Below are positions 3,198 to 51,202 of a stretch of DNA of 64,000 nt, piece after piece. The notes below the pieces were generated by a model that saw nothing but the letters and a program-made list of their open reading frames with translations, ran no database searches and was not told where the DNA came from. Each line of letters opens with the position of its first letter. Position 1 is the stretch's first letter. The translations under genes and the position numbers were made by a program. Location: contig JAZSIR010000001.1 of NCBI GenBank assembly GCA_045533905.1, positions 7,617-71,616 of the forward strand, written 5' to 3'. This DNA is from Clostridia bacterium (GTDB taxonomy: Bacteria > Bacillota > Clostridia > UMGS1883 > UMGS1540).

Positions 3198-3209
3198 CGA
3201 GGTGATAAA

Positions 3210-3563
3210 TTGGAACAGTATAATTTTTCAAACAGCAATATTGACCTTGCCTGTGAGGATGTTGGCGTTTTTCTGACATCGGTCGGAGTGGAAAAACGCG
3301 AAGTTTTGCGAAACAAACTCACCCTTGAGGAAATACTCCTTGAATACCAAGCAAAGTTTGGTGAAGAAGCGAACTTTAAGGTAAGATGCGTAAACCGCTT
3401 TATGACCATCAAGGTTGAGTTAATTGTTTCGGGACGGGTTTACAATCCGCTTGAAAAGAACGAGGAAGAAAACATCATACATGGAATTTTGGCAGGTATC
3501 GGTCTTGCCCCCTCATACGGATACAGAAACGGAAAGAATTATATCATTTTCACTCCCAAGAAA
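3210..3563 (+). other. RsbW-like pseudo-kinase module at the N-terminus of symporter 1
   Basis: NIDLACEDVGVFLTSV / KLTLEEILLEY / FKVRCVNRFMTIKVELIVSGRVYNPLEK / YGYRNGKNYIIF are collinear with NIETVTDFVNEQLEAF / IDIAIDELFGNI / ATVRVEVTEDPLAVVITFIDNGVPYDPLAK / YEYKDGHNILKI of the kinase at 13992-14402. Confidence 0.5.
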
Positions 3564-4781
3564 AAACCGTTGTCAAGCACGGTTAAAATGGGTGTGGCGA
3601 TTGGACTTTCGCTCATTTGCGGTTTTTTCCTTAATCTTCTGCCCGATTCAGTTAGAGCAGGTGCAAGCAAATATGTACTTTCGCCTGTGACCGATGCGTT
3701 TATGGGATTGATTTCGGCTGTATCGATTCCGCTGATTTTCTTGTCTGTCCTTGGTAGCATCTGCTCTATGGGCAACATGGAAACTCTCGGCAAAATTGGA
3801 AAAAAGACCATTAAAACTATTCTCCTGTATTTGACGGCGTTCAGTATACTTATGACAGCACTTGGAAGCTTGTTCTTTCACGTACAGTGGGGTGGCGGAG
3901 GAGCATCAGGTTTCTCACAGGTTTTCGATTTGATTTATAACATCATTCCATCGAATATGTTTGAACCTTTTATAACGGGAAATACTCTGCAGCTTATCTT
4001 CATTTCCATTATAGTTGGACTTGCAATGCTTGTCCTTTCGACAAGAGTGAACGGTGTTTTCAAACTTGTCGAACAGTTGGGCGCGATTGTGCAAACAATT
4101 ATGTCAGGACTTTCATCTATGCTGCCGATTTTGATTTTTGTACTCTTTACGGGAATGATATCCGGCGGAGAGTTCGGAACTCTGCTTGATTCTTGGAAGA
4201 TTATTGCAGTTTTCCTGTTGCTCGTTATGGTTTACTATGCAACAACTGTTTTGTACATTGCATTTAATAAAAAAATTTCGCCGGCTTTGCTATTAAAAAA
4301 GACATGGAAGACGCTTATTATTGCTCTTACAACTGCATCTTCTGCTGCGGCATTCCAAAAAAATATTCGCGATTCAAACAAAAAGTTTGGTATTGACAAA
4401 CGTCTCGCGGAATTTGGGGCATCCTTGGGACAAGTGTTGTTCAGCCCTGCTGATGTTGCTATTCTCATTGCAATGGAGGTTGGGTTTGCGGAAATGTATG
4501 GCATTGCGATCACTCCGCAGTTTTTAATCATTGCGTTGATCACGAACCTACTTTTGTCATTTTCCATTCCTCCCGTACCCGGAGGCTCTGTGATGGGATA
4601 CACTATTGCATTCACACAGCTTGGTATTCCTTTGGAGGTTATGGGTGTTGTTCTTGCCTTGGATGCGATCATTGATTTTCCGGCAACAGCGTGCAACATT
4701 TCGGGATGGCAGCTTACAATGATTGAGGTTGCTGACTCGCTCGATATGCTCGATAAAGAAACACTTTGCAAAAAGAGATGA
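3210..4781 (+). CDS. Dicarboxylate/amino-acid:cation symporter (DAACS/SDF family), paralog 1, with an extra N-terminal soluble domain
   Basis: TTG start 6 nt after GAGGTG. Multiple hydrophobic segments. SDF-type motifs TTASSAAAF, PPVPGGSVMGYT, DAIIDFPATACNISG. The first ~118 aa are non-membrane. Confidence 0.85.
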   Translation: MEQYNFSNSNIDLACEDVGVFLTSVGVEKREVLRNKLTLEEILLEYQAKFGEEANFKVRCVNRFMTIKVELIVSGRVYNPLEKNEEENIIHGILAGIGLAPSYGYRNGKNYIIFTPKKKPLSSTVKMGVAIGLSLICGFFLNLLPDSVRAGASKYVLSPVTDAFMGLISAVSIPLIFLSVLGSICSMGNMETLGKIGKKTIKTILLYLTAFSILMTALGSLFFHVQWGGGGASGFSQVFDLIYNIIPSNMFEPFITGNTLQLIFISIIVGLAMLVLSTRVNGVFKLVEQLGAIVQTIMSGLSSMLPILIFVLFTGMISGGEFGTLLDSWKIIAVFLLLVMVYYATTVLYIAFNKKISPALLLKKTWKTLIIALTTASSAAAFQKNIRDSNKKFGIDKRLAEFGASLGQVLFSPADVAILIAMEVGFAEMYGIAITPQFLIIALITNLLLSFSIPPVPGGSVMGYTIAFTQLGIPLEVMGVVLALDAIIDFPATACNISGWQLTMIEVADSLDMLDKETLCKKR

Positions 4782-4790
4782 GGTGGTTAA

Positions 4791-5144
4791 TTGGAACAGT
4801 ATAATTTTTCAAACAGCAATATTGACCTTGCCTGTGAAGAAGTCGGTGAGTTTCTTTCCAAAGTCGGTGTAGAACGACGCGAGGCTCTCCGAACAAAGCT
4901 CACATTTGAGGAAGTATTGCTTGAATACCAATCCAAGTTCGGAGAGGAAGCCACCTTCAAGGTGAGACTTCTGAAACGCTTGTCCTCTATAAAGGTCGAG
5001 ATCATCGTAGAAGGAGAATCCTACAACGCTCTTGTCAAAAACAGCGACGAGGGTGACGTGATACAAGGTCTGCTTGCAGGTATCGGTCTTGCTCCTACTT
5101 GGAATTACAAGAACGGTAAAAATTACATCGTATTTATACCAAAG
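4791..5144 (+). other. RsbW-like pseudo-kinase module at the N-terminus of symporter 2
   Basis: Same block structure as 3210-3563: NIDLACEEVGEFLSKV, KLTFEEVLLEY, FKVRLLKRLSSIKVEIIVEGESYNALVK, WNYKNGKNYIVF. Confidence 0.5.
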
Positions 5145-6365
5145 AAAAAACCGCTGTCCGGCACGGCCAAAATGGTCGGTGCAATCGGACTTGCGGTGAT
5201 TTGCGGAATTATCTTAAATCTCTTGCCAGACGGAATCAGAGCAGGCGCAAACGATTATGTGCTAACACCCGTAACGAATGCGTTTGTGGGACTTATCTCA
5301 GCAGTATCAGGGCCGCTGATCTTCCTATCGGTTCTCGGCAGTATCTGCTCCATGGGCAATATGGAAACCCTCGGCAAGATCGGAAGTAAGACGATTAAGG
5401 TTATCCTTCTTTATATGACGGTAATCGCAGTATTGATGACCGCATTCGGCTGCCTGTTTTATCACATTGAAATGGGTGGCGGAGGGACATCGAGCTTCTC
5501 GCAGATTCTCGATTTGATCTATGACATCATTCCGTCAAATCTGTTTGAACCCTTTGTAACCGGAAATGCTTTGCAGCTGATCTTCATTTCCATCATGGTC
5601 GGACTTGCAATGCTTGTCCTATCGTCGAGAGTCAGTGGCGTGTTCAAGCTCGTGGAACAGCTCAGCTCCATCGTGCAAACGATTATGTCGGGGCTGTCCT
5701 CAATGCTTCCGATTCTGATATTTGTTCTCTTTACGGGAATGATTTCAAGCGGTAACCTTGGTGCAATTCTCGATTCTTGGAAGATGATATTAGTCATCGT
5801 GCTAATGATTGTAGTTTACTACGTACTGAATCTTCTGCGAATCTCCCTTATGAAAAAGATACCGCCGGCTTTGCTGATGAAGAAAGCGTGGCAGACACTT
5901 CTCATTGCACTTACCACCGCATCCTCGGCTGCCGCGTTCGGTACGAACACCCGTGATGCAAACAAAAAGCTTGGTATTGACAAAAAGCTTGTTGAGTTCG
6001 CAACTCCCATCGGTCAGGTATTGTTTATGCCCGGATATGTCGCCATGCTTTTTTGTATGGAAATGGGCTTTGCGGAATCCTACGGTCTTCCGATTACTCT
6101 ACCGTGGATATTTATCGCTCTTATCACAAATCTTTTGTTATCATTTGCAGTCCCGCCCGTGCCCGGTGGTGCAATGATGGGATTTACGATTGCTTTTACA
6201 CAACTCGGCATTCCTATGGAGGTTATGGGTATTGCGTTGGCGGTGAACGCTATCATTGATTTCCCCTGTACAGCCTGCAATGTTTCAGGATGGCAGCTTA
6301 CTCTTATTGATGTTGCTGACTCACTTAATATGTTGGATAAAGAATCATTACATAAAAATAATTAA
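4791..6365 (+). CDS. DAACS/SDF-family symporter, paralog 2 (tandem duplicate of 3210-4781), with the same N-terminal extra domain
   Basis: Collinear with paralog 1 over its full length. Same TTG start context. Motifs TTASSAAAF, PPVPGGAMMGFT, NAIIDFPCTACNVSG. Confidence 0.85.
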   Translation: MEQYNFSNSNIDLACEEVGEFLSKVGVERREALRTKLTFEEVLLEYQSKFGEEATFKVRLLKRLSSIKVEIIVEGESYNALVKNSDEGDVIQGLLAGIGLAPTWNYKNGKNYIVFIPKKKPLSGTAKMVGAIGLAVICGIILNLLPDGIRAGANDYVLTPVTNAFVGLISAVSGPLIFLSVLGSICSMGNMETLGKIGSKTIKVILLYMTVIAVLMTAFGCLFYHIEMGGGGTSSFSQILDLIYDIIPSNLFEPFVTGNALQLIFISIMVGLAMLVLSSRVSGVFKLVEQLSSIVQTIMSGLSSMLPILIFVLFTGMISSGNLGAILDSWKMILVIVLMIVVYYVLNLLRISLMKKIPPALLMKKAWQTLLIALTTASSAAAFGTNTRDANKKLGIDKKLVEFATPIGQVLFMPGYVAMLFCMEMGFAESYGLPITLPWIFIALITNLLLSFAVPPVPGGAMMGFTIAFTQLGIPMEVMGIALAVNAIIDFPCTACNVSGWQLTLIDVADSLNMLDKESLHKNN

Positions 6366-6384
6366 AAGAAAGAGGTAGATTACT

Positions 6385-6681
6385 ATGACTATCGAAAAAA
6401 ACTTAAACGGAACCGAACTGACAGTTGCCATTGTTGGCAGACTTGACACAACAACCGCACCTGAACTTGAAGCATCTTTAAAAGAAAGCTTTACTGGTGT
6501 AGAAAAACTTGTGCTTGATTTTGCTTCACTTGAGTATCTTTCTTCTGCAGGACTTCGTGTTCTTCTGGCGGCTCAGAAGGCAATGAACAAGCAGGGCGAA
6601 ATGATTATTAAGAATGTAAACGAAACCATCAATGAAATCTTTGAAGTAACGGGATTTATTGATATTTTGACAATCGAATAA
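6385..6681 (+). CDS. STAS-domain anti-sigma-factor antagonist (SpoIIAA/RsbV-like), copy 1
   Basis: 98 aa of typical STAS length. Phospho-serine loop LEYLSSAGLRVLL. RBS AGAGG 9 nt upstream. Confidence 0.85.
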   Translation: MTIEKNLNGTELTVAIVGRLDTTTAPELEASLKESFTGVEKLVLDFASLEYLSSAGLRVLLAAQKAMNKQGEMIIKNVNETINEIFEVTGFIDILTIE

Positions 6682-11771: not shown

Positions 11772-11804
11772 AAATAATAATAATTTAGAAAGAGGTAATT
11801 TATA

Positions 11805-12101
11805 ATGACTATCGAAAAGAACTTAAGCGGTACAGAACTTAATGTAAAGGTGTCAGGCAGACTTGACACAACAACCGCACCGGAACTTGAAGCAGAAGTT
11901 ATGGGCGCAATCTCAGGTGTAACAAAACTTGTACTTAACTTTGAAGCACTTGAGTACCTTTCATCTGCAGGACTCAGAGTACTGCTTCAGGTACAAAAGA
12001 TAATGAACAAGCAGGGTGAGATGATTATTAAGAACGTAAACGAAACAATCAATGAGATTTTTGAAGTAACAGGATTCATTGATATTCTGACGATTGAATA
12101 A
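11805..12101 (+). CDS. STAS-domain anti-sigma-factor antagonist, copy 2
   Basis: 98 aa paralog of 6385-6681. Same LEYLSSAGLRVLL loop. The last 32 aa are identical to copy 1. Confidence 0.85.
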   Translation: MTIEKNLSGTELNVKVSGRLDTTTAPELEAEVMGAISGVTKLVLNFEALEYLSSAGLRVLLQVQKIMNKQGEMIIKNVNETINEIFEVTGFIDILTIE

Positions 12102-16648: not shown

Positions 16649-16784
16649 ACATACCCTCATATTAAAATATGGTCCACATTAATCAAAGAAAAGGACTTTG
16701 AAAAAACTTCGTAGACTTATGTCATCTTCTGTGGTATGTTTGTGTTGCCGAAAAGGTAAATACAAATTTAGGAGATGAAATTTT

Positions 16785-17339
16785 ATGAAGAAAAAAGTAT
16801 TATGTACGGCATTGGCAGTGACTATGTTGCTAACAACAACTGCATCGGCAACTGCAAAACCTTGGTGGCTCAGTAAATACCGAGTAACTTTCGACAATGA
16901 ACTTGGAATCGTAGGAAATGTAACCTTAACCTTCGCCTCAGACGGCGGTAGCTTTATCAGGCCAATAACCAAAAGATATGGCGAGAGCATCAGTCTTGAA
17001 AGTTATGTACCAACAAAATACGGTTACACATTCAAAGGATGGTTCACAGATCCAAGAACAAAGCAAAATCAGGTAACAACATTCAAATTCACAAAGCCTG
17101 ATGTGCTTTACGCTAAGTGGCAGCCTAACCCACAGGAGCCTATAAATCCGAATGACGAAATCATAGCAAAAGATACCTGCTACCTCACGGACGAAGAAAC
17201 AAAAATACGAAATGAAATTATAGAAGAAAAGAATAAGACATACATCGAAGGCTTCGGTTATGTAGCTCCAAGTAAAACAAAAACAATCATCGTAGACTCA
17301 GGCGGTGATATAAATAAAATGGTCGGCACAATGGAATAA
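16785..17339 (+). CDS. Small secreted protein with one Listeria-Bacteroides-type repeat
   Basis: Signal-like N-terminus MKKKVLCTALAVTMLLTTTASA. Repeat signature YGYTFKGWFTDP. RBS AGGAGA. Confidence 0.6.
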   Translation: MKKKVLCTALAVTMLLTTTASATAKPWWLSKYRVTFDNELGIVGNVTLTFASDGGSFIRPITKRYGESISLESYVPTKYGYTFKGWFTDPRTKQNQVTTFKFTKPDVLYAKWQPNPQEPINPNDEIIAKDTCYLTDEETKIRNEIIEEKNKTYIEGFGYVAPSKTKTIIVDSGGDINKMVGTME

Positions 17340-17355
17340 AAAGAATAACTTAAAT

Positions 17356-17395
17356 GGCGGTATGCTCGAGATTACCTCGAACATACCGCCGTTTT
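17356..17395. terminator. Hairpin terminator between convergent genes
   Basis: GGCGGTATGcTCGAG-attac-CTCGAaCATACCGCC followed by GTTTT. Confidence 0.6.
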
Positions 17396-17400
17396 GTATC

Positions 17401-18507
17401 TTATATTTCTTTCAGTAGCCTGATGGCTTCATCAAGTGAAATTTCTCCGGACTCGCCACGATCTTTAATATCCATAGCCAATGTACTCTGTTCAAGCCAC
17501 TTGGAATAATCCAATCCGCTTGATTTTCGCTTAGCCAATCGATCGTAAGTTCTGTCATATTCTTTTTTTATTGGAGACCTGAATTCATCTGAGTTTTCTT
17601 TTTTGTGAGCACCTACCTTGCTGCATGTCCTGCCTTTCGGATCGTTAGGAGCCACTCTGTTGCAATAGTGGGTATCATGACCTGTTGGCAAAAGAAAAAA
17701 ACGTTTGCAATTATGACATCTTTTCGGTGAGTGTTTAACATTTAATCCTCTGAACAGGTCTGAATTTAAAAAGCCGCCAATAGACCTGAAAATGACTCTT
17801 TCTGCCAATATATAATTTTCTTTGCAATCAGGATCAGGACAAGTGACATATTCAATATTTGCCGGCATTTCTGCTTTAAATGTAATTGCAGGATATTTCG
17901 GGATAAGAGATTCAAGATTTTGCTGTAATTCGCTATTATTCAGAAACTGATATATTGCGTGTGCAAAATGTGCAGGGGTTCTTGCAGTAACATTTTCTAT
18001 ATATAAATCAACAAATGCAGATGCATATATTTTAAAAATCAGTATTTCATCATTGATTGATAACAAGCCTACTAAAATTCTGTTTAATATGCTTCTGCTC
18101 TCGCTTTTGGGATGGGTTTCATATATTTCCCTGAACTCCGATATATATCTTCTTTTATCAAATTCAAAGCGGTCATATAAAGGCAGGCTAAGGATAACAT
18201 CTAATGCCTTGCTTAGATATGGAGCAAAGCCATCAAAACTGCATGATGATATAATCATTAAATTTGATTCGTATTCCCCATATAGTTTTTCTAGAAACGC
18301 TTTCCTTAAATTTGATAATACTGTTTTCAAATTATCAAGCTGTTCGTCAGATAGCTCCAGAATTTCAGTTGAAATCTGACCAAGCGAGACCTTTTCTTTT
18401 CCGATAATGACATAATCTTTATAAAATTGTGCCGTTATATATCCAAAATCAAATGGTTTTTCATCTAAACTTTTTATACTTGCCATATACTCACTTCCAC
18501 GATACAT
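17401..18507 (-). CDS. Hypothetical protein with a C-terminal Cys/His cluster, next to the recombinase module
   Basis: 368-aa ORF; an alternative start MASIKSL is at 18486. Cluster CPDPDC...RCHNCKRFFLLPTGHDTHYCNRV...RTCSKVGAHKK suggests zinc binding. I cannot assign a family with confidence. Confidence 0.5.
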   Translation of the reverse strand: MYRGSEYMASIKSLDEKPFDFGYITAQFYKDYVIIGKEKVSLGQISTEILELSDEQLDNLKTVLSNLRKAFLEKLYGEYESNLMIISSCSFDGFAPYLSKALDVILSLPLYDRFEFDKRRYISEFREIYETHPKSESRSILNRILVGLLSINDEILIFKIYASAFVDLYIENVTARTPAHFAHAIYQFLNNSELQQNLESLIPKYPAITFKAEMPANIEYVTCPDPDCKENYILAERVIFRSIGGFLNSDLFRGLNVKHSPKRCHNCKRFFLLPTGHDTHYCNRVAPNDPKGRTCSKVGAHKKENSDEFRSPIKKEYDRTYDRLAKRKSSGLDYSKWLEQSTLAMDIKDRGESGEISLDEAIRLLKEI

Positions 18508-18549
18508 ATTTTATAATTCCACTACTTTTGAAAATGGCGGCAAAATCGA

Positions 18550-18578
18550 TTGACGCACATCTTGCGATATGTTAGAAT
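18550..18578 (+). promoter_or_regulatory. Sigma-A-type promoter upstream of the recombinase operon
   Basis: TTGACG, 17 nt, TAGAAT, with an extended-10 TGn (tgtTAGAAT). Confidence 0.55.
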
Positions 18579-18794
18579 AGCCACACAACAAATTATACAC
18601 GATACAAATAAAAATGTCAATCGTGGAAATTGAACCTTGAAAACTTAATAGCCGAACCGCAAGGGATACATTCTCGGGGAAGTGTCGCCACGATATGAGC
18701 GCACCAAGAGATGAAAATACGATGTCGGTGTCAAACAAGGCAGGAGGTCAGGAACTGTAGCGGAAGTCGGTGCTAAAATAATTATATGAAGGGA

Positions 18795-18959
18795 ATGATG
18801 TTTATGAAATCTATGAATATAGAGATAGAAAAGGCTGTTGCCAAGGCTATGATTTTAAACCTGTTAAAAGCAAACCTTATAAGCGATGAGGAAGCAAACA
18901 AGCTGATAGATAAAGCCTTTGATGCATTAAGCGAGCCTTTAATAGAAAACTCAGCATAA
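18795..18959 (+). CDS. Small hypothetical ORF (51-54 codons) preceding the recombinases
   Basis: Below the track cutoff. ATG codons at 18795, 18798 and 18804. Peptide MKSMNIEIEKAVAKAMILNLLKANLISDEEANKLIDKAFDALSEPLIENSA, predicted helical. Confidence 0.35.
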   Translation: MMFMKSMNIEIEKAVAKAMILNLLKANLISDEEANKLIDKAFDALSEPLIENSA

Positions 18960-19051
18960 TCTTTTAGTTTTTGTTTAATATTTGTCTGGATATATTAAGT
19001 TATTTGTGGTATTGTTGTCTTGAAAAAAATATGGAAAGGAGTGTGAGGCTG

Positions 19052-20593
19052 ATGTCAGAAGTAATTGTTATCCAAGGAAATCATACAAAAAACGAACCTG
19101 TGTTAAAGCGAGTATCCGCTTATGCCAGAGTAAGCTCTGCTTCAGACGAACAGCAATACTCCTTCCATAATCAGGTTCAGCACTTTACAAGCTTGATACA
19201 GGGAAATCCCGATTGGAAATATGTAGACATATATGCCGATGAAGGTGTAACCGGCACAAGAGAGGACAAACGCAGTGAATTCAACCGAATGATAAGAGAT
19301 GCCGAGGATGGACTGATGGACATTATCATTACAAAATCAGTCTCACGCTTCGGCAGAAATGTTTCAGAGTGCCTAAGAACAGTAAAACATCTCAAGGATA
19401 TTGGAGTTACCGTGATATTCGAAGAGGAAGGTCTTGATTCGGGAAAGCCTGCTGACTTTACAATGATATCTGTAAAAGCAGCAATGGCAGAACAGGAATC
19501 AATCTCTACTGCTGAGAACGGCAGAATGGCAAACCGCCAGAGAATGAAGATGGGTACATTTGTTCAAAGCAATCCTCCAATCGGTTATACATTAAACGGC
19601 ACGGAATTCGAGGTTAACGAGGAACAAGCCGATGTTATCAAACGAATATTTGCCGAATACCTGTCAGGAAGTGGTACAAGCAAAATTGCCGATGGGCTTA
19701 TGAAAGATAAAATTCCCAATAAGTATGGCAAGGTGCATTGGACACCGCAAAGTGTCAGCTATATCATAAATAACCCAAGATACAAAGGCGGTGCCCTGTT
19801 CCAGAAATCCTTTAAGACAGGATTTCCGTATAAGAAAAAGAAGAACACAGGCGAACTGCCGATGTATTATGCAGAGGATGCCAATATCCCCATAGTAAGT
19901 GCAGAAGACTTTGACAAAGCAGCCGAGCTTATGCAGACAAGGCGTGAAAAGCATGCCCAGGAAAACAACGAGAATGCAAGTATCTTTGCAAAGAAGATAT
20001 ATTGCAGGCACTGCGGTTCCACTTATCGATATAAAAATGGTACAGATACATGGGTATGCAGAACACACGATAAAGGCACAGACAAATGTCAGGCAATGCC
20101 TGTAAGCGAAGAAATGCTTAAAAAGGCATTTGTTCAAATGTATAATAAGCTGAAAGCAAATTATGAGCATATCCTTCTCCCGTTCTTAACACAGGTAGAG
20201 GCTATGAAGATAAACAAGGCAGAGCAAGATAGAATTGCTGATATCAACATGCAAATAGCACAGAATACAGAGCAGGTTTTATCGCTCCGAAGACTAAAGA
20301 GTCAGGAGCTGATAGAGCCTGCTTTCTATATTCAGGAGCTTAACCGCTTTGATAAGCAAACAATGGAACTTCGGAAAAAGAAAAATGCCATACTGCACAA
20401 CAACCGATATGATGACATTATCTCAAAGACCAGAAAAATCATAAGAGAAATGGAATCGGCTTGTGCAATAGGCAAATTCGATGCTGATAGCTTCAAAAAT
20501 CTTGTAAGCAGAATTGAAGCAGATAATGAAATAATAACCTTTATCCTCATAAACGGAATGGGGCTTGAGGTTAGCAAAAAGGAGGTGTTATAA
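19052..20593 (+). CDS. Large serine recombinase 1
   Basis: Start MSEVIVIQ follows AAAGGAG; the track ORF is extended upstream. Catalytic motif AYARVSSASDEQ, SVSRFGRN, recombinase domain, zinc ribbon CRHCGS...CRTHDKGTDKC, coiled-coil C-terminus. Confidence 0.9.
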   Translation: MSEVIVIQGNHTKNEPVLKRVSAYARVSSASDEQQYSFHNQVQHFTSLIQGNPDWKYVDIYADEGVTGTREDKRSEFNRMIRDAEDGLMDIIITKSVSRFGRNVSECLRTVKHLKDIGVTVIFEEEGLDSGKPADFTMISVKAAMAEQESISTAENGRMANRQRMKMGTFVQSNPPIGYTLNGTEFEVNEEQADVIKRIFAEYLSGSGTSKIADGLMKDKIPNKYGKVHWTPQSVSYIINNPRYKGGALFQKSFKTGFPYKKKKNTGELPMYYAEDANIPIVSAEDFDKAAELMQTRREKHAQENNENASIFAKKIYCRHCGSTYRYKNGTDTWVCRTHDKGTDKCQAMPVSEEMLKKAFVQMYNKLKANYEHILLPFLTQVEAMKINKAEQDRIADINMQIAQNTEQVLSLRRLKSQELIEPAFYIQELNRFDKQTMELRKKKNAILHNNRYDDIISKTRKIIREMESACAIGKFDADSFKNLVSRIEADNEIITFILINGMGLEVSKKEVL

Positions 20594-21457
20594 ATGGCAA
20601 ACCGTTACCTTGCATTCGGCTACAAAATAGCTGACGGCAAACTTTGTGTTGAAGAAACTGAGGCAGAACTTGTAAAGGCGACCTTTACACTGTATGCGGC
20701 AGGAAAATCCTACAGCCAAATTGCTGAAAGATTTACCTTAAGCGGAATCAGATACAACATTGATTTTGACAAATGGAATAAAAATATGGTAAAGCGGATA
20801 ATTGAAAACGATAAATATATCGGCAGGAACGGTTATCCGCAAATCATAGAAGAAAAGCTCTATAACAAGGCGAACAAGACAAGAATTTCAAAAGTCATAA
20901 ATAAACCGCCTGAAAAAGCAGAGCTTGACAACTTCCTTCGGTCTCATTCGGAATGCCCGGTTTGCAGCTCCCCGATAAAAAGGCAGAATCAATGCTACGG
21001 CGAGAATAGGTCTGTGGCATATAAATGTACCAATTCTGTATGCCCGGCGAAATCTGTTAAAGAGAATCGACTTGTAAATCTCATAACGGAATTGCTTAAC
21101 GAAATTGCAAATGATTTAAGTCTTGCAGATGAACCTGTTATAACCGCAATTCCCGATGATGAACTGACAGACGATATGGCAAACGATATCTACATAAAAA
21201 TGCTGACGGAATACGATAAGGATGAAGTGCTTGCAGACATATATGAGCTTGCAAAATTCAAATTCCGAAACAGTATCAAAACAGATATGAGTGCAGTTAC
21301 AGAAAGAATAAAAAAAGAGCTTTGCAAGTATGGGATACTTACAGAGCCTCATCTTCCGCTTATGCAGAAAATTATATCAAAATTCTATGTAGGCGGTCAG
21401 GAAGAGCTTTCTATACTGCTTACCAATGGAAAATTAATAACAAGGAGTGTGAATTAA
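20594..21457 (+). CDS. Serine-recombinase-family protein lacking the catalytic resolvase domain (recombinase domain plus zinc ribbon only)
   Basis: Starts one nt after the stop of recombinase 1. Begins at the recombinase-domain block LAFGYKIADGKLCVEETEAELVKATFTLYAAGKSYSQIAERF. Zinc ribbon CPVCSS...YKCTNSVCPAK. No YxRVS nucleophile motif. Confidence 0.75.
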   Translation: MANRYLAFGYKIADGKLCVEETEAELVKATFTLYAAGKSYSQIAERFTLSGIRYNIDFDKWNKNMVKRIIENDKYIGRNGYPQIIEEKLYNKANKTRISKVINKPPEKAELDNFLRSHSECPVCSSPIKRQNQCYGENRSVAYKCTNSVCPAKSVKENRLVNLITELLNEIANDLSLADEPVITAIPDDELTDDMANDIYIKMLTEYDKDEVLADIYELAKFKFRNSIKTDMSAVTERIKKELCKYGILTEPHLPLMQKIISKFYVGGQEELSILLTNGKLITRSVN

Positions 21458-21459
21458 AG

Positions 21460-23064
21460 ATGGCAAATGTAATCGAAATACCTGCAACAAAATCATATTT
21501 CGGGCATAGTGCAAAGCGAGTCCTGAATGTGGGTGCTTATGCGAGAGTCAGCACCGAGGCGGAGCAACAAGCAAAAAGCTTTGAAACTCAGGTTGAACAC
21601 TATACCAAACTGATCAAAGAAACTACCGGTTGGAAATTTGTAGATGTATATGGCGATGAAGGTATCAGCGGAACCTCTATATACAACCGACCAGAGTTTC
21701 AGAGAATGATGAATGATTGCAGAAAAGGCAGGCTGGACTTAATAATAATTAAATCAGTATCAAGATTCGGCAGAAATTCCGCCGAGAGCTTACAATGTAT
21801 CAGAGAACTTAAGGATTTAGGTGTCGGAGTAATATTTGAAAAGGAAGGTATCAATACCCTCAACTATACGACCGAGATGTTCATTGCACTGCATACCATA
21901 TTCGCTCAATCCGAAAGTGAGTCGATGAGTGAAAATATAAAAATGGGCAGAAGTTACAGATACCGTGAGGGTAAGTGCTGCTATAACTTTAACGGAGTAT
22001 ACGGCTTCAGTCAGGACGATGAAAAAAACATATCAGTGGAAATCGGCAAAGCAATCAATGTCAGGTTCATCTTCGACTGCTTCATAAAAGGTATGAGCAT
22101 AGAACAAATTGTCAATGCACTTGCCGAAAGAGAAATCCCCTCTCCGAGAGGTAAAGAAAGATGGTCGCCCGGCTCAGTGGAAAGAATACTTAAGAATGAA
22201 AAATATGCAGGTGATGTTCTGACCTCAAAGACATTAACTCTTGATCCAATCTCAAAGAAAAAGGTAAAGAACACAGGTCAGGCTCCGCAGTATTATATCA
22301 GAGACCATCATCCGCCAATCGTAGAACGAGAACTGTTCGACAGTGTACAAGAGGAAATTAGCCGACGTGGATGTATCAAAAAGTTTGATAAAAAACAAAG
22401 CTATGGAAAATACAGCGGGAAATTTCCTTACAATGACTTAATATTCTGTGGTGAGTGCGGTGCCAAATACAGACGAACAGAATGGAAAACCCGTAGCGGT
22501 GATAAGAAATATGTGTGGCGATGCCTGAACAGAATTCAGAACGGACAAGATTGCTGTAAGAATTCTCCTTCCATCAACAATAACTTTATGAATGAGGTTA
22601 CGCTCGAAGCTATCAATGCGATATACACAAGTAGAAAAAGAGTAAAGGACATATTAAAAAGCTCAATCGCCTCTCTACTCGGGGATACCGAACAGCCAAA
22701 GATAAGTGCAAATATGGAAAAGCTTAATCTAATGAGCGACAGAATGCGTGAGGCTATATACCAAAATGCTAACGGTGAAATATCAACGGACGAGCTTGAC
22801 AGAATATGTCTGGAAGTAAAGATGGAATCGCAAAGACTGCGTCAAGAGAATAAGGAATATGAGATGGAGAGAAAGATGAAATCAACCGAGTCATCTAAGC
22901 TGAAGCTTATCTTCAAAGCCATTGATGGTATGGAAGATAAGGTGAGCGAGATTGATACACCTCTCATTCGAAGCATCATCGAAAGATACGAGGTTGTGTC
23001 AAAGAAAAAGATGATCATATGGTTCATCGGCGACATACCTTATGAGGTTGACCTACCGAAATAA
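21460..23064 (+). CDS. Large serine recombinase 2 (third gene of the trio)
   Basis: Start MANVIEIP follows AGGAG. Catalytic AYARVSTEAEQQ, SVSRFGRN, zinc ribbon CGECGAKY...WRCLNRIQNGQDCC, coiled-coil tail. Confidence 0.9.
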   Translation: MANVIEIPATKSYFGHSAKRVLNVGAYARVSTEAEQQAKSFETQVEHYTKLIKETTGWKFVDVYGDEGISGTSIYNRPEFQRMMNDCRKGRLDLIIIKSVSRFGRNSAESLQCIRELKDLGVGVIFEKEGINTLNYTTEMFIALHTIFAQSESESMSENIKMGRSYRYREGKCCYNFNGVYGFSQDDEKNISVEIGKAINVRFIFDCFIKGMSIEQIVNALAEREIPSPRGKERWSPGSVERILKNEKYAGDVLTSKTLTLDPISKKKVKNTGQAPQYYIRDHHPPIVERELFDSVQEEISRRGCIKKFDKKQSYGKYSGKFPYNDLIFCGECGAKYRRTEWKTRSGDKKYVWRCLNRIQNGQDCCKNSPSINNNFMNEVTLEAINAIYTSRKRVKDILKSSIASLLGDTEQPKISANMEKLNLMSDRMREAIYQNANGEISTDELDRICLEVKMESQRLRQENKEYEMERKMKSTESSKLKLIFKAIDGMEDKVSEIDTPLIRSIIERYEVVSKKKMIIWFIGDIPYEVDLPK

Positions 23065-23101
23065 CGGCAGGTCCTTTTTACAAGAAATTTTCAAAAAGGC
23101 C

Positions 23102-23130
23102 TTGTAAAAAATATAGTTTTATGGTAGAAT
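23102..23130 (+). promoter_or_regulatory. Outward-facing promoter-like element downstream of the recombinases
   Basis: TTGTAA, 17 nt, TAGAAT, with TGn (tggTAGAAT). It overlaps an inverted repeat, so it may instead be part of a terminator or att structure. Confidence 0.3.
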
Positions 23131-23246
23131 AAATCTTGTAAAAGAGATTTATTCTGCCTTTGGAATTGATAAGGGTAAAACCTTGAAACCCGCTTGAAAT
23201 CAAGCAAAAATTAATGTGGCAGTAAAATCATATCGTTCTTACACGT

Positions 23247-23275
23247 CGGAGCAAAGTACGCTTTGCTCCGTTTTT
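23247..23275 (+). terminator. Rho-independent terminator
   Basis: CGGAGCAAAG-tacg-CTTTGCTCCG followed by TTTTT. Confidence 0.65.
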
Positions 23276-23437: not shown

Positions 23438-23467
23438 GGGCAGATTTTATAGAAATCTGCCCTTTTT
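23438..23467 (-). terminator. Bidirectional hairpin terminator directly after the stop at 23469
   Basis: AAAAA-GGGCAGATTT-tatag-AAATCTGCCC-TTTTT. Confidence 0.65.
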
Positions 23468-23507
23468 CTTATTTTTCTATTTGCTTTTTCACAAGGCTTT
23501 CGTCCCA
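23461..23507. repeat. Direct repeat copy A: imperfect duplicate of the acyl-CoA synthetase 3' end (candidate att/integration-site sequence)
   Basis: On the minus strand, GAAAGCCTTGTGAAAAAGCAAATAGAAAAATAAgaaaaagg compares with copy B GAAAGCCTCGTAAAAAAGCAAATCGAGAAATAAgaaaagg. There are 4 substitutions, all synonymous, and 1 indel. Confidence 0.8.
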
Positions 23508-26500
23508 TCCATATTCTTTAATATATGTATCTGCCTCTTTTAGGGCCTTTTTGTCTGTGTAGGCATCATACGAGAAGATACCGTCCTCGACCATTTTCTC
23601 AATCGTCGGTAGCGCTTCGTCAGGGGTTGCCTTGGCTTCAAGGATTGTGCGAACGGTCTGCGATACTTTCTTGTTTTTTCCTGTTTTCTGAGGCACTTGT
23701 ATGTCTCTGTGCGGTTTTTCTCCGCTTGGGATTGCGCCGTACCTTTCTATAAGCTCGTTGTAAAGTTCAGTACTTACGTGCCCTTTCTCTACATACTTTG
23801 CCAACTTGCGTTTGGCGGCCTCGTCCCCTTTTTGCAAGCCTTGAATGGTGGCAACATATTCCCTCTCCGAGAGCATGCCTTTGAGAGAAAAATCACTCTT
23901 GACTTTTTGTTCGGGATGTGCTACACTCTTGTTAAGGTCAGCACTTGTGTGCCCTGCCTCAGCATCTGTATTGATGCTTGCAGGGAAAGTGTTGGCCGTT
24001 TCTTTTTCCCAAACCCTGTGCACCCAGAATTTGTTTTTCTGCGGTGATTTTTTAATATCTAGGCGGATGGTAACGTCTTTTCCGTCGACCTCCAGCGTAT
24101 GCTCGATGTACGCAAATTTTTTATTATCGCTGTTTCCGTATTGGTTTTGAACATTATCAGCAACAAGACGTCCTTTCTCGATGATTTCTGGTAATCTCCT
24201 TATCGTAGCAAGCTTTGTAATTTTCTTATTCTTACCGAGACGTGCATAATTTTTCAAATTAAATGTCTCGTCGATTCCGCTTTTATTTGTTTCAATAATC
24301 ATACCGGAATCTTCGTTGACGTCTACTCTTTTTCGCTTCTCGGTATCTGTAAAAAAGTTTTCCCCGAGAAGAGTTTTTAGCACTTGTCTTTGCACGTGAA
24401 TGTAATCCCCAGGCGCGTCAATCCCAAAACTTTCAAAGGTGCTTTTAACAAACTCGTCCGAATAGTTGCTCTCACGCCTCGCGGGGACGCTTTCAACCGC
24501 TTTTATATAGTCGGAGTCTTTGAGAGAAAAATCACTCTTGACAATTTTTTGGGGGTGTGATATATTATCCCTAGAGTAGTTCTCTTTAACGTCTTGGACG
24601 TACGCCTTGCGGATTTCATGCAAATCAGCGAGATATTGAGAACTACTCTGTTTTTTATGTATAGCATCAATCAAGCCATACAGGTTTGGAATACTATCTA
24701 TCCCCGTTTTTACCATTTGCTTGTTAATAAGAAGTTTTTCTCTGTTATATTCCGTTGTTATTGCTTCGACATAATAAATCACATCACCCGGCATTACTTT
24801 TACATAAATCAAACCCGGATCACCATTTGCGTTTGTTTTGTAAAATACTTTATCGTAATTTTCAACAATATACGGAATTAGCTCAACATCTGCTTCGGTA
24901 ACAGGGTATTTTTCATTTGTTTTTTTGCCGTGGGAGTTCTTGATATGCCGAATATCATTATCGCGCAACGCATGAGAATAACCCGATATATCCACATCAG
25001 AAGATACTTCATTTATCAAATCCCTTCCAACCTTTAGGAATTTAATGTAAGATTTTTCATTATCGTTTAGATAGGCTTTTTCTATGTACCGGTTGATGTC
25101 AGATTGCGTAACCTCAAAATCAAACACTTTATCCGCATATCCTAATGTCTTCAAGGAAAAGTCCACACCGCCCTCTGGAGCGGTGTTCTTTTGTCCGTCT
25201 ATTCTCTTGAGTGAATAGCTCTTTTCTTCCGATTCTCTGAAGAGATTTTCGAGGACATTTCTAAAAGCTCGGCTTCCGTTGCGTTGGGATTGTCTCGGCA
25301 AAACTCCAACATTTTGATTGTGTCTTCCGCCTCCCAGGTTTCGAAGATTATTTTGACTACTGTTGACATTTTGCAACCAACTTCCTTGAGATACCCTTTG
25401 AGCAAAACTTGGTTTTCCGTTAATACCCTTGCCATCTTCTTCGTCCTCCAATAAATCAATTAAAATATCTAATTCAAAGCTTCCGTCATCGCCTTTTCTT
25501 TCGTAGAGGATTGTAGGATGTTCTGGGGTTTCCGTGCTGTATATGGCAAACAAAGCTTCTCCGTCAATTCTGCCTTTATACCAACATCCAACCGTATCTG
25601 CGATTCTTTTAGGTTCGTGATTCTCAACCTGCCGAATCCAGTCTTCCAGCATTTTGAACTGCGTTGCGTTCAAATCTGTGCGCCATTTTAACGAATAGCT
25701 TGTATTTCCATTATACTCCGCTCCCATGTTTTTTTCAAGAGTATCGGAGGAATTCTCTTTTTTGAGAGAAATTTCATTCTTGACAGAATTTGAATTTTGT
25801 GGTATATTGTCATTAGAAACACTATCCCGTGTAGCCTGTCTTTCGGCAGGCAATCTGGTCATTCTTTCGAGAAGACCAATCTCGGCGGTAGTGTTTTCTT
25901 CAATCCCAACAATATCGTATAGGTATTTGTTGCCATCAGAAGCATTCCTAATCAACAGCTCGACATCAAAAGCTCGTACCTTTGTTATCTTTCCTCGATT
26001 ATCTTTTATCGGGAAAGCAAAGGAATTAGCATAACGATACATACCATACTTCGCATCCTTATTATGTGTGTGCTGCGTCTTTTCCCACCTGCGATTCGTA
26101 GCTGTTTCTATCAATTCTCCAAAGCCGTCAACAGCTTTATTTTTACCTCTTGCGGCGGTGCGATTAACCCTACGGAGAAAAGTGGTGTACTTCGAATGCG
26201 TGTACTCTTGCGGCAAATCCTCGCCAATGTAGACCTTCTGCCCACTTTCTATAATCGTATAAACTTCGCCTATATGTTGTGCAATGTAGCCTGCAACAGC
26301 TTGATGGCTGTTTAATTGCTTGTTGGTCAGTCCACTTTCTTCAATCCATACAAAGCTCTTGCCATCAACATTTTTCAAGCTAAAGTCTACGCCGTCCTCT
26401 GTGTCGGTGTTTTTTTGTGCCTCTGCGGTCTGTTTAGTATGAGCCTTTGCTTCCACCGCCTTTTTGTTTTCCACAGCCTTTGCGACAGCAGTCTCAAACA

Positions 26501-27566
26501 TATCGCGAAGACTTGTGATTTCGTCAAGCTTTGGCTGAATCTTTGCTTTTTCTTTGGCGCTCTTGCCTGCAAGAAAATCACGAATTTTCCTAATCATCTC
26601 GGCAAGATACTCAATGTACTTCCGCAAGCCTTGCTTTGCCTTTTCGTCCGTGCCGTTGATGATGCTGTCAATAGCCTTATGGAATCGCGCCTCATCGTTG
26701 CCGTAAAGGTAGAGAATGTTGTTTGCAGAAACTTCTTCCATTGCCTTTGCAAGAGATATTTCCTCGCCCTGTGCGGCGTATGCACTTCGTTTTTGGTCTG
26801 CAACGGTAAATATAGACGGCTCATTGCCGGCAATGTGATTATACATCGCATACACAAACGCGCTGCCTTCTTCAGGGGCAAGGTCGACAACTCTATGCAG
26901 CGCTATTTCGTGCGCCGCATGGAAGACAATAGATACCTTCTGCCCGCCCACTTCTCTTTCAAAATCGAAGTCAATAGGCACTTCCCCCGTTTGCCTGTTG
27001 TACTCGGCGTTGCCTTTTAGGCCCTTTGCCATATACGCCTTTACGCCAAGTCCTTCTGCTAAAAGATTGAGCGTTGCAACCTCGCTTTGTTTAACATCGC
27101 TCGGCAGGTTTTCCGCAAGAACGCCGCTTTCCATATTTACAACTGCATTTCTAAACCTTTCTTTGGCGGCGAGGTCTTCCATTTTTCTGTCCATCTGCCC
27201 TGCCGTGAACGCATCTTCTTGTGCTTTGGATATAAATACGTCCTTGCCTTTTTTAACATTCAAGTCCGGTTGCTTAAAGCCTGTCATGTACGATGCCTTG
27301 ACCTCTTCCAGCACTTTGTTAAAGGTTGCCCCGTCTGCATTCGAATAATTGGCCACAAGTTTCGCCCCTTCCTCGCCAAACCCCGTGACCTTTCTTACCT
27401 CGTCGGCGGTTATCTCCACGCCGTTCTCGGTGAGGACATCTAGTGTTTCGCTGCTTACGATTCCTCTTCTGCGGTTTTCAAGAAGGGTGTAACCGTCTAC
27501 TCGATTTTTTCTACCGCGCCCATTGCCTTCCTTATACGCAAAAAGGCTGTGAAACCTAGGTTTCAC
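23469..27566 (-). CDS. Polyvalent protein of conjugative-element or phage type, apparently 5'-truncated. Its last 10 codons are supplied by repeat copy A.
   Basis: 1365-aa ORF made of modules separated by recurring (D)FSLK linkers, six in total. Nuclease-like motif SHALRDNDIRHIKNSHG. No credible RBS or ATG at the 5' end: a GTG inside a palindrome, 9 nt after the upstream stop. Confidence 0.6.
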   Translation of the reverse strand: MKPRFHSLFAYKEGNGRGRKNRVDGYTLLENRRRGIVSSETLDVLTENGVEITADEVRKVTGFGEEGAKLVANYSNADGATFNKVLEEVKASYMTGFKQPDLNVKKGKDVFISKAQEDAFTAGQMDRKMEDLAAKERFRNAVVNMESGVLAENLPSDVKQSEVATLNLLAEGLGVKAYMAKGLKGNAEYNRQTGEVPIDFDFEREVGGQKVSIVFHAAHEIALHRVVDLAPEEGSAFVYAMYNHIAGNEPSIFTVADQKRSAYAAQGEEISLAKAMEEVSANNILYLYGNDEARFHKAIDSIINGTDEKAKQGLRKYIEYLAEMIRKIRDFLAGKSAKEKAKIQPKLDEITSLRDMFETAVAKAVENKKAVEAKAHTKQTAEAQKNTDTEDGVDFSLKNVDGKSFVWIEESGLTNKQLNSHQAVAGYIAQHIGEVYTIIESGQKVYIGEDLPQEYTHSKYTTFLRRVNRTAARGKNKAVDGFGELIETATNRRWEKTQHTHNKDAKYGMYRYANSFAFPIKDNRGKITKVRAFDVELLIRNASDGNKYLYDIVGIEENTTAEIGLLERMTRLPAERQATRDSVSNDNIPQNSNSVKNEISLKKENSSDTLEKNMGAEYNGNTSYSLKWRTDLNATQFKMLEDWIRQVENHEPKRIADTVGCWYKGRIDGEALFAIYSTETPEHPTILYERKGDDGSFELDILIDLLEDEEDGKGINGKPSFAQRVSQGSWLQNVNSSQNNLRNLGGGRHNQNVGVLPRQSQRNGSRAFRNVLENLFRESEEKSYSLKRIDGQKNTAPEGGVDFSLKTLGYADKVFDFEVTQSDINRYIEKAYLNDNEKSYIKFLKVGRDLINEVSSDVDISGYSHALRDNDIRHIKNSHGKKTNEKYPVTEADVELIPYIVENYDKVFYKTNANGDPGLIYVKVMPGDVIYYVEAITTEYNREKLLINKQMVKTGIDSIPNLYGLIDAIHKKQSSSQYLADLHEIRKAYVQDVKENYSRDNISHPQKIVKSDFSLKDSDYIKAVESVPARRESNYSDEFVKSTFESFGIDAPGDYIHVQRQVLKTLLGENFFTDTEKRKRVDVNEDSGMIIETNKSGIDETFNLKNYARLGKNKKITKLATIRRLPEIIEKGRLVADNVQNQYGNSDNKKFAYIEHTLEVDGKDVTIRLDIKKSPQKNKFWVHRVWEKETANTFPASINTDAEAGHTSADLNKSVAHPEQKVKSDFSLKGMLSEREYVATIQGLQKGDEAAKRKLAKYVEKGHVSTELYNELIERYGAIPSGEKPHRDIQVPQKTGKNKKVSQTVRTILEAKATPDEALPTIEKMVEDGIFSYDAYTDKKALKEADTYIKEYGWDESLVKKQIEK
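27549..27566. repeat. Perfect 18-bp palindrome at the island/chromosome junction (terminator stem or recombination core)
   Basis: GTGAAACCTAGGTTTCAC lies 9 nt downstream of the synthetase stop. On the minus strand it is followed by AGCCTTTTT. Confidence 0.8.
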
Positions 27567-27568
27567 AT

Positions 27569-27614
27569 CCTTTTCTTATTTCTCGATTTGCTTTTTTACG
27601 AGGCTTTCGCCGCA
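27569..27614. repeat. Direct repeat copy B (native 3' end of the acyl-CoA synthetase gene)
   Basis: See copy A. Copy B uses the GC-richer synonymous codons (CTC, GTA, ATC, GAG). Confidence 0.8.
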
Positions 27615-49870: not shown

Positions 49871-51202
49871 TTATTGCTCCGGCATTTTCATAATGCCAAA
49901 TTCGTCTTTGAGCCAGAGAAGTACTTCTCCATCGAGGGATGCCAGGCCTAAATTGAACTGACCTTTCAGTGTTGTATCCTTTCGGATGGTTTCGTACAGA
50001 CCCTTTGCAATATCCACCTGTGCTTTGATTTCAGGTGTTTTAAACATAAACTGCCTGTCAATGATAGCCTTATCTTCATACGTTAATACATCTATAATGC
50101 AGTCATGAATCGTTGTGATTAAGAGATACGGCTCAACGCCGGAAAACTCATTGAGATGTGCACTTATGTCGTCACGCACAAATCTGAGCTGGTCGGCCAT
50201 CGCCTTGTTTTCGAGCGCGTAGTTCGGCGTGGGCGTCGGTTTCGGCGTAGCCGTTGCAGTGGGCTTCGGAGAAGCGGTTGCAGTAGGTTTCGGCGTAGCT
50301 GTTGCAGTAGGCTTCGGAGAAGCGGTTGCGGTAGGCTTCGGAGAAGCGGTTGCGGTAGCACTCGGGCTCGTAGTTGCCGTGGGTGCAGGGCTTGCCGTGG
50401 GCGCAGGAGAAGCCGAAGGGCTCTGTGTGGGAACCGGTGTGGCTGTAGGTGTGGGCGTTGTGCCGCCGACAACATTGTTGCCGCCGCCTCCACCGCCGCC
50501 TCCACCGCCGCCACCGCCGCCTCCGCCGCCGGAGGAGCTTGTGGGTTTGGGTGTAGGCGTGGGAACTACAGGCACATAGAGATTTGCAAACATCTGGCAA
50601 AACTCAGCTCTTGTTATGTTTTGCGTAGCACGGAAGGTGTTCCCCGCTTCCAGCGAAACGAATGCATTTCCAAGCGCGGCCTGTACATACGGAACGGCCC
50701 ACTCGGAAACCACGTCACTGATTTCGGTTTTAATCCCCAAGTCAAAAAGAGCTGCCGTGCGGCAAAGGATAGCGCACGCTTGTTCTCTTGTTACCATATT
50801 CTGGCCGCGGAAGGTGCCGTCCTCATACCCTACGATGTAGCCGGCCTTCTTGGCAATCAGTACATAGTCATAATACCAGTCCTCAGCCGTTACATCCGAA
50901 AAACCGGTAGCGTCTTTTTCAGTGTAGGCGAAAATGGCATTTACAATCTTGGAAAGCTCTGCACGTGTGATGGGAGCATCCGGTCGGAATGTACCGTCGC
51001 CATATCCAAGCAAAATGCCGCCGTCGGCAAGCTTGTAGATGGCTTTTCCTGCATCTGTGTTCTTATCTACATCCGTAAACACAATGGGAGTTTTCGTCTC
51101 CGCCGAGCGTGCGGAAAGCTCTGTTGCAGAAACGGATGCAAGTGTGGCGAACACTGTCATGGCAATTGCCAGAAACAATGCGCCTTTTCTTGAAGGTTTC
51201 AT
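49871..51202 (-). CDS. SLH-domain surface protein with a Gly17 tract and Pro/Thr/Ala-rich tandem repeats
   Basis: Signal peptide. Three SLH repeats (FTDVDKNTDAGKAIY, FSDVTAEDWYYDYV, ISDVVSEWAVPYV). Low-complexity linker and a C-terminal globular domain. Confidence 0.8.
   Translation of the reverse strand: MKPSRKGALFLAIAMTVFATLASVSATELSARSAETKTPIVFTDVDKNTDAGKAIYKLADGGILLGYGDGTFRPDAPITRAELSKIVNAIFAYTEKDATGFSDVTAEDWYYDYVLIAKKAGYIVGYEDGTFRGQNMVTREQACAILCRTAALFDLGIKTEISDVVSEWAVPYVQAALGNAFVSLEAGNTFRATQNITRAEFCQMFANLYVPVVPTPTPKPTSSSGGGGGGGGGGGGGGGGGNNVVGGTTPTPTATPVPTQSPSASPAPTASPAPTATTSPSATATASPKPTATASPKPTATATPKPTATASPKPTATATPKPTPTPNYALENKAMADQLRFVRDDISAHLNEFSGVEPYLLITTIHDCIIDVLTYEDKAIIDRQFMFKTPEIKAQVDIAKGLYETIRKDTTLKGQFNLGLASLDGEVLLWLKDEFGIMKMPEQ
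50226..50530 (-). repeat. In-frame coding tandem repeats: a 24-nt unit (TATASPKP) about 5 times, plus 17 consecutive Gly codons (50480-50530)
   Basis: ggcttcggagaagcggttgcagta-type units recur from about 50226 to 50350. NCC triplets run uninterrupted from 50480 to 50530. Confidence 0.85.

Follow-up and report, generated by a model that had tools for sequence, protein, structure and literature searches.

A non-catalytic recombinase paralogue conserved between two large serine recombinases in a small element of a Clostridia bacterium

What does a relative of the serine recombinases do, without a catalytic domain of its own, between two complete large serine recombinases (LSRs)? The question is raised by three adjacent genes, here called LSR-A, M, and LSR-C, at one end of a 6.6-kb element in the genome of a Clostridia bacterium (GenBank assembly GCA_045533905.1, contig JAZSIR010000001.1). 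The stretch analyzed, hereafter the window, comprises 64,000 nucleotides (nt; contig positions 7,617 to 71,616), and coordinates count from its first letter. An original prediction, made from the letters of the window, had suggested that M could act as an accessory or directionality factor at attachment (att) sites or as a dominant-negative regulator. We found that M is a conserved paralogue of the recombinases under purifying selection, for which some accessory or regulatory role at att sites seems the most reasonable.

The three open reading frames (ORFs) lie where they had been predicted and encode 513, 287, and 534 amino acids (aa). In Pfam searches both outer proteins match the catalytic domain PF00239 (E = 1e-27 for LSR-A and 1e-31 for LSR-C) and, C-terminal to it, the recombinase domain PF07508 and the zinc ribbon PF13408 above curated cut-offs; both carry SRFGRN besides the expected YARVS motif. 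LSR-A also matches the PHROG integrase family phrog_95 (E = 1e-113), and the end-to-end homology of LSR-A and LSR-C to LSRs (phrog_95 and NCBIfam matches) suggests that both contain coiled coils. For M, Pfam returned no PF00239 match; the only matches are to profile positions 1-61 of the 102 in PF07508 and, under threshold, to a C4 zinc finger. Together with the motif CPVCSS...CTNSVCPAK, this bears out the predicted composition of a recombinase domain plus a zinc ribbon.

As had been noted from the sequence, M starts directly past LSR-A: the TAA stop codon abuts the ATG, with AAGGAGGTG 7 nt before the start. LSR-C begins 2 nt past the M stop (TAA-AG-ATG) and is preceded by AAGGAGTG, and each of the three genes has a strong ribosome-binding site. 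Because M has no PF00239, opens at the PFGY motif that begins the recombinase domain, and has the LSR-A stop as the in-frame codon directly upstream, we regard it as an LSR-derived DNA-binding protein and not as a recombinase. We also considered a read-through fusion of A and M. In the window the two are in one frame; at other loci a 2-nt gap or a 4-nt overlap puts them in different frames, so a fusion is not a conserved feature. A split LSR with a separate catalytic ORF was likewise rejected: the window element contains no such ORF, and stand-alone catalytic-domain ORFs occur in a minority of loci.

The AlphaFold2 model of M (predicted local distance difference test, pLDDT, 83.6) matches only large-serine-integrase structures in the PDB at E <= 0.001 in Foldseek, those of SPbeta, A118, Bxb1, and phiC31 (E from 4e-10 to 5e-4), and the matches are LSR-DNA complexes. 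The M-family profile matches 4kis across residues 7-278. In profile comparison (hhalign), M pairs over its full length with residues 175-507 of LSR-A (99% probability), including the C-terminal 'ILING' strands, and its alignment with LSR-C is limited to the recombinase and zinc domains. In structural terms M is the DNA-binding half of an LSR. Its recombinase domain is about 28 residues shorter than that of either LSR-A or LSR-C, and its helical hairpin is shorter than that of LSR-A. Across M alignments, the N-terminus M-x-x-R-x-x-x-F-G-Y (R4, PFGY), the helix WNKNMVKRIIEN.KY.G, and the four cysteines are invariant. The recombinase domain is the most conserved part of the protein, and its helix has a mean pairwise identity of 0.64, compared with 0.40 for the equivalent in LSR-A.

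A gene of this kind could be the product of a recent 5′ deletion, a possibility that the original prediction had itself raised. A word-indexed search found 890 homologues of M at E <= 1e-5, with full-length matches as low as 28% identity; among the matches listed, 119 of 120 are free of PF00239, and most are 283-350 aa long with a few shorter fragments. When 1.84 billion representatives of 50%-identity clusters were searched exhaustively with HMMER, 865 of them matched at E <= 1e-10. Most of the top 150 measure roughly 270-305 aa, and in every one except P0131 the match begins at one of the protein's own residues 1-8. P0131, which we had considered as a natural A-M fusion, is an 847-aa serine recombinase that has a single catalytic domain and, behind it, the recombinase domain five times in tandem. 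The ratio of nonsynonymous to synonymous substitution rates (dN/dS, Nei-Gojobori), taken over the same element pairs for all three genes, spans 0.05-0.17 in M, compared with 0.05-0.13 in A and 0.03-0.10 in C, and across 50 trios the pairwise identities of A, M, and C are correlated with one another (r = 0.94-0.96). M is under purifying selection, and the three genes are co-inherited. Conservation, dN/dS, and the intact, conserved N-terminus, together with the loci described below, decisively rule out a recent deletion or a pseudogene.

A scan of one genome per species yielded 199 relatives of M. We viewed 80 of these loci, and a further 80 from IMG/VR that were picked with an alignment of LSR-C relatives, which removes the bias of choosing loci by M. 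Every M-picked locus uncut by contig ends has the same gene order: a full LSR (~510-540 aa), the short member, and a second full LSR (~535-555 aa). All 80 IMG/VR loci have a short member free of the catalytic domain between two full LSRs; BLAST found it in 78, and in the remaining two it is a 140-aa form seen on translation. Pfam calls precomputed on independent contigs agree with this order. Y-x-R-V-S is present in all 75 LSR-C orthologues and in 64 of 69 LSR-A orthologues, some of whose ORFs are cut by contig ends (one other has YCRAS, and four have no detectable motif); the SRFxR-type motif is found in 68 of these 69, the last reading SRIIR. Decayed members do occur: A is truncated in loci L013 and L084-L086, and C in L035.

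The trio is not confined to elements like that of the window. Plasmid pRUMAL02 of Ruminococcus albus 7 carries one (507, 291, and 545 aa) adjoining MobC/relaxase genes; intact trios are also present in the cultured strains Hominimerdicola aceti and Ruminococcus sp. Marseille-P6503. In Ruminococcus phage NatCom_38182, whose genome is complete, proteins of 513 and 140 aa, both annotated 'DNA invertase', are followed by one of 521 aa whose residues ~181-419 match the recombinase-zinc region of M; judging from gene order and sizes, this phage carries a trio as well. Small 'Bacteriophage sp.' records with trios were considered as circles, but they are linear fragments without terminal overlap and give no evidence of circularity. 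In gut Clostridia, the mobile elements and phages that share this conserved three-gene unit number in the hundreds.

Table 1. Features of the trio, of protein M and its family, and of the surrounding element (positions in the window unless residues are given)
Feature	Position	Strand	Remarks
LSR-A	19052-20593	+	513 aa; PF00239 + PF07508 + PF13408; YARVS motif
M	20594-21457	+	287 aa; non-catalytic recombinase paralogue
LSR-C	21460-23064	+	534 aa; PF00239 + PF07508 + PF13408; YARVS motif
M, shortened recombinase domain	residues ~1-100
M, Cys4 zinc ribbon	residues C121, C124, C145, C150
M, helical hairpin	residues ~157-226
M, small C-terminal beta domain	residues 261-285
Middle-member class, ~135-145 aa			recombinase domain only
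Middle-member class, ~176-188 aa
Middle-member class, ~247-253 aa			without Cys4 zinc ribbon
Middle-member class, 273-350 aa			includes M of the window
Element	16660-23243		6.6 kb; trio at its closing (right) end
Left end	16660-16784		non-coding, conserved; opens TATYAAAATATGRTMC; promoter-like block before the first gene
Cargo gene	16785-17339	+	184 aa; Listeria-Bacteroides repeat (Flg_new) domain, PF09479; conserved in related elements
DUF6076 protein	17401-18507	-	368 aa; PF19553, E = 3e-37
Predicted promoters, possible M targets	18550-18620 and 23102-23130
Small ORF	18786-18959	+	93 nt upstream of LSR-A; conserved core of ~51 aa from Met at 18804
Right end	23065-23243		179 nt, non-coding; conservation well above that of coding DNA; terminus ...CAGTAAAATCATATCGTTCTTACA
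Outward promoter, predicted	23102-23130	+	TTGTAA-17-TAGAAT with upstream TG; sigma-70-like
Terminator hairpin	23247-23270	+	flanking DNA right past the insertion point, outside the element
Example candidate target sequence			ACATACCCTCACGTCGGAGCAAAGTACGCTTTGCTCCG

The boundaries of the element were placed by comparison. Similarity to related elements L012, L013, L018, L002, L007, and L011 begins at 16660, where the element reads TATYAAAATATG inward, and to the left of this point the loci have unrelated DNA; at 23243 similarity to 12 related elements ends, and the flanks are again unrelated. The related elements are 6.9-8.8 kb long. Elements with 91%-95% identity in trio DNA, or 95%-97% in trio proteins, are found in unrelated flanks, and since such near-identical elements occupy different surroundings, they must have moved recently with M intact. 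The neighbors of the window copy are a 5′-nucleotidase/SLH gene on one side and a gene for a polyvalent protein on the other; searching for exact copies of the flanking proteins gave no match. No conjugation genes were found in the 6.6-kb element with Pfam. The dinucleotide CA flanks the window copy on both sides, although it does not do so in all relatives, and CA and TA are candidates for the crossover dinucleotide.

At both ends of such elements there are ~110-180 nt of conserved non-coding DNA, beyond what a minimal 50-bp att site needs. The right end shows no conserved RNA fold: RNAalifold scores it at -1.9 kcal/mol and detects hardly any covariation, and Rfam has nothing credible. The outward promoter of the right end is kept in all 13 aligned right ends, and it would read out of the element or, in a circular form, over the joint. 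When the two ends are joined to reconstruct attP, no consistent dyad center is found; this lack of two-fold symmetry may, weakly, fit the binding of different proteins on the two arms.

The right flanks share one property. An intrinsic-terminator-like hairpin lies within 30 nt of the insertion point in nine of 13 flanks by a strict definition and in 12 of 13 by eye, compared with a background of 2% (P ~3e-13). These hairpins begin 0-30 nt beyond the trio elements and on the same strand as the trio (23244-23270 in the window; likewise L004-L018). Related copies thus occupy many sites that nearly always appear to lie just before a host terminator, which could reflect either targeting or selection after insertion. 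In locus L008, a second sequence resembling the right end (3434-3458) lies ~170 nt past the first (3240-3264), suggesting an insertion beside the remnant of a related element.

What M might do has to be judged against direct observations of domain content, conservation, purifying selection, co-inheritance, fixed order, element boundaries, and many insertion sites; a hetero-oligomer, DNA binding by M, and the sign of its effect on recombination are matters of inference. The three genes would form a single recombination module that moves the small element and that, in related forms, would serve plasmid-borne mobilizable elements and temperate phages. LSR-A and LSR-C, both catalytically competent by motif, would most likely act together, as a hetero-oligomer, to cut the element ends and the target and rejoin them. 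M is an LSR-A-like paralogue that lost its catalytic and dimerization domain long ago and whose gene was nevertheless kept. Adjacent or overlapping stop and start codons, and a strong ribosome-binding site that belongs to M itself, suggest that it is made in step with A and C. It would use its shortened recombinase domain to contact DNA in or next to the att sites, where it would serve the A/C recombinase as an architectural or specificity subunit that does not cut, and in longer forms, such as that of the window, the zinc ribbon, hairpin, and beta domain may add contacts to DNA and protein.

We regard this proposal, that A and C form a heteromeric integrase of which M, placed on or next to the att sites, is the non-catalytic DNA-binding subunit, as about equally likely to be right or wrong. 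Several points weigh against it. With a recombinase domain some 28 residues short, the DNA binding of M could be altered or lost, and its binding to DNA, to A, or to C is presumed. A GTAAAAYC-like repeat in the element ends is only suggestive as an M motif, and a second candidate, CYTTGAAAM, was rejected with eight matches compared with 4.6 expected, which is not significant. Public contigs (viral and Joint Genome Institute [JGI] metagenome) contained neither an excised circle junction nor an empty target site. Finally, the same data fit an inhibitor or repressor role. An excess of ACAGTAAAA in the loci is accounted for by homologous coding positions.

Several shortened forms of transposases are familiar as inhibitors of transposition (Tn5 Inh, P-element KP, and IS1 InsA). 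M could in the same way be a negative regulator, either a dominant negative at A-type half-sites or a repressor of the module promoters, that keeps excision and transposition rare. The absence of a catalytic and dimerization domain would suit such a role, as would the closeness of M to the DNA-binding half of LSR-A, through which it could recognize similar DNA, and the end regions hold conserved promoters that it might bind. However, a pure inhibitor placed between two enzymes, and apparently translationally coupled to them, would be unusual in 160 loci (barring those cut by contig ends). The 28-residue deletion and the distinctive, more strongly conserved helix also argue that M reads something other than an A half-site. 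We take negative regulation seriously as a possibility but consider it doubtful.

The proposal of a DNA-binding subunit has a bolder version, in which M is an obligatory third subunit, so that catalysis (A and C) and part of site selection (M) would reside on separate polypeptides; as it stands, we think this unlikely. M would then recognize something conserved, either in the ends of the element or in the target (insertions lie just before intrinsic terminators), and license A and C at many loosely related sites, an extension that we hold with equally little confidence.

It seems less likely again that M is a built-in directionality factor whose coiled coil or zinc domain engages the coiled coils of A and C on attL and attR and so switches between integration and excision. 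M of the window does have a zinc ribbon and a long helical hairpin resembling the LSR coiled coil, and known directionality factors are reported to act on the hinge between the zinc domain and the coiled coil (PMC5814800; PMC11722253). However, M apparently shares its transcription and translation with A and C and would provide no timed switch unless it is otherwise regulated, and the small ORF upstream of LSR-A is an equally good candidate. Many family members, moreover, lack the parts in question. Middle members range from ~135 to 350 aa across the wider family, and the shortened recombinase domain is the sole part common to every size class (phrog_7701); the ~140-aa forms, including that of the phage, and the ~247-aa forms lack the zinc ribbon or lack the coiled coil altogether. 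As a function of the whole family, directionality based on a coiled coil therefore fails, since many middle members consist of a ~140-aa recombinase domain only.

That A and C are independent integrases, for example one per direction or target, and M the functionless, decaying remnant of a third is very improbable: full-length serine-integrase triplets exist (PMC4701971) and make a third full-length ancestor plausible, and A or C has decayed at some loci, but the dN/dS of M (0.05-0.17), its N-terminus intact at the same motif in hundreds of diverged clusters, its retention in every viewed locus uncut by contig ends, and its own strong ribosome-binding site speak against decay, and the data on selection and conservation contradict it.

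The closest published counterparts of the trio are found in streptococcal integrative and conjugative elements (ICEs) of the Tn1549 and Tn5252 families, which carry triplets of serine integrases, all with PF00239 (Ambroset et al. 2016, PMC4701971; PMC7563491). These ICEs are conjugative and insert in mutT, traG, and hsdM (PMC4701971; PMC7563491). As in the window, their three genes of the serine-recombinase family are adjacent, co-oriented, and near an element end, and insertion leaves very short repeats (2-8 bp). The streptococcal members fall into a separate clade for each position, implying an ancestral three-gene module. In contrast to the streptococcal triplets, the middle member lacks PF00239 in the window and in every viewed locus uncut by contig ends; the window element is only 6.6 kb long and without conjugation genes, and its relatives occupy many intergenic, terminator-proximal sites. 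In full-text literature searches we came across no middle member that lacks the catalytic domain, although absence from what was searched does not prove that none is described. The original prediction knew of no characterized example; this stands for the variant with a non-catalytic middle member, but serine-integrase triplets as such are already published, and the streptococcal ones are a closer precedent than any it had named.

The comparison it did draw, with CcrA and CcrB of the staphylococcal cassette chromosome (SCC), is useful as an analogy: these are likewise two different LSRs encoded side by side. A 2013 study by Misiura et al. is said to have found CcrA and CcrB jointly required, with unequal roles in DNA binding. 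As family membership the likeness does not hold, since in NCBIfam LSR-A scores 126 bits against CcrB (cut-off 900) and 82 bits against CcrA (cut-off 700); LSR-C scores 137 bits against CcrB, and M 43 bits against CcrA. SCC, furthermore, has no third, non-catalytic member, and it targets the 3′ end of rlmH (orfX), whereas the window element is inserted elsewhere, between the 5′-nucleotidase/SLH and polyvalent-protein genes. TnpX of Tn4451 and TndX of Tn5397 are LSRs that move small to medium-sized clostridial elements through a circle into many targets, with a 2-bp crossover. They act as a single recombinase at a GA crossover, compared with two recombinases plus M and a candidate CA or TA here.

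Like the directionality factors phiC31 gp3, Bxb1 gp47, and SPbeta SprB, which alter what an LSR does, M would be a non-catalytic partner of such an enzyme. The known factors are reported to be unrelated to the integrase (PMC11795197). M differs from them in being a paralogue of the DNA-binding half of the integrase and in being encoded between both enzymes. Functional analogies are offered by the subunits at the accessory sites of resolvase synaptosomes, Tn5 Inh, and IS1 InsA, all of them derived from recombinases, which bind DNA without cutting it and shape or restrain the reaction. Resolvase accessory sites, however, use the same full-length protein, and Tn5 Inh and IS1 InsA are alternative products of a transposase gene, whereas M is a separate, conserved gene.

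The DUF6076 gene of the element is also present in L013-type relatives, in the order seen in L084-L086, and a comparison with the DNA of L001-L007 shows that its region in the window has been swapped. In the closer clades the small ORF, whose C-terminus reads ...P[LV][IY]ENSA, is kept 60-93 nt before LSR-A, and it occupies the same position in L004, L005, L007, L009, L010, L012, and L016-L019. It has no match above the curated cut-off in Pfam and no NCBIfam or PHROG family; the nearest Pfam match, to CtsR_C, is weak (19.6 bits compared with a cut-off of 23.8). We consider it a candidate cofactor, regulator, or directionality factor of the module.

Several repeats lie elsewhere in the window. 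An imperfect direct repeat of ~45 nt (23462-23506 and 27569-27613, 82% identical) covers in each copy the end of a minus-strand ORF (nine final codons, SLVKKQIEK, and a stop codon) together with a terminator hairpin. One of these ORFs encodes a 1365-aa polyvalent protein (PBECR3, LPD3), which is open to the junction and looks 5′-truncated, and the other an AMP-binding acyl-CoA synthetase; GC content rises from ~0.40 to ~0.50 near 27500, at the point of the repeat. The pair (23462-27613) resembles att-type repeats that bracket what is left, 4.1 kb, of another mobile element, or else an assembly join. A ~315-nt duplication (6367-6681 and 11787-12101, 82%-97% identical) opens with a ribosome-binding site and an ATG; one copy lies just before genes for a SpoIIE-type phosphatase and a HATPase_c_2 kinase and may encode a small partner-switching protein. 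Adjacent paralogous genes for SDF symporters (3199-4781 and 4780-6365) share ~70%-76% DNA identity over repeated segments. Finally, a tandem array with a 24-nt period and six overlapping copies (50211-50402) lies inside two ORFs, 49871-51202 on the minus and 50156-51193 on the plus strand.

LSRs are regarded as the simplest of integrases, one protein acting on two short sites, and are prized for genome engineering for that reason. A very common module in which two enzymes and an enzyme-derived, non-catalytic partner are encoded in fixed order implies a multi-subunit version of this reaction. Such modules are found in elements of gut Clostridia and on a Ruminococcus plasmid, and the order and sizes of the genes point to one in a Ruminococcus phage as well. 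Understanding the trio would show how DNA recognition is divided in heteromeric serine recombinases, why some conjugative elements carry recombinase triplets, and how small elements pick terminator-proximal sites, and it could give the integrase toolbox a separable DNA-targeting part. If M should prove to be an obligatory third subunit, the module would be a serine 'transposase' with a separate targeting subunit, which would also explain the full-length triplets of streptococci.

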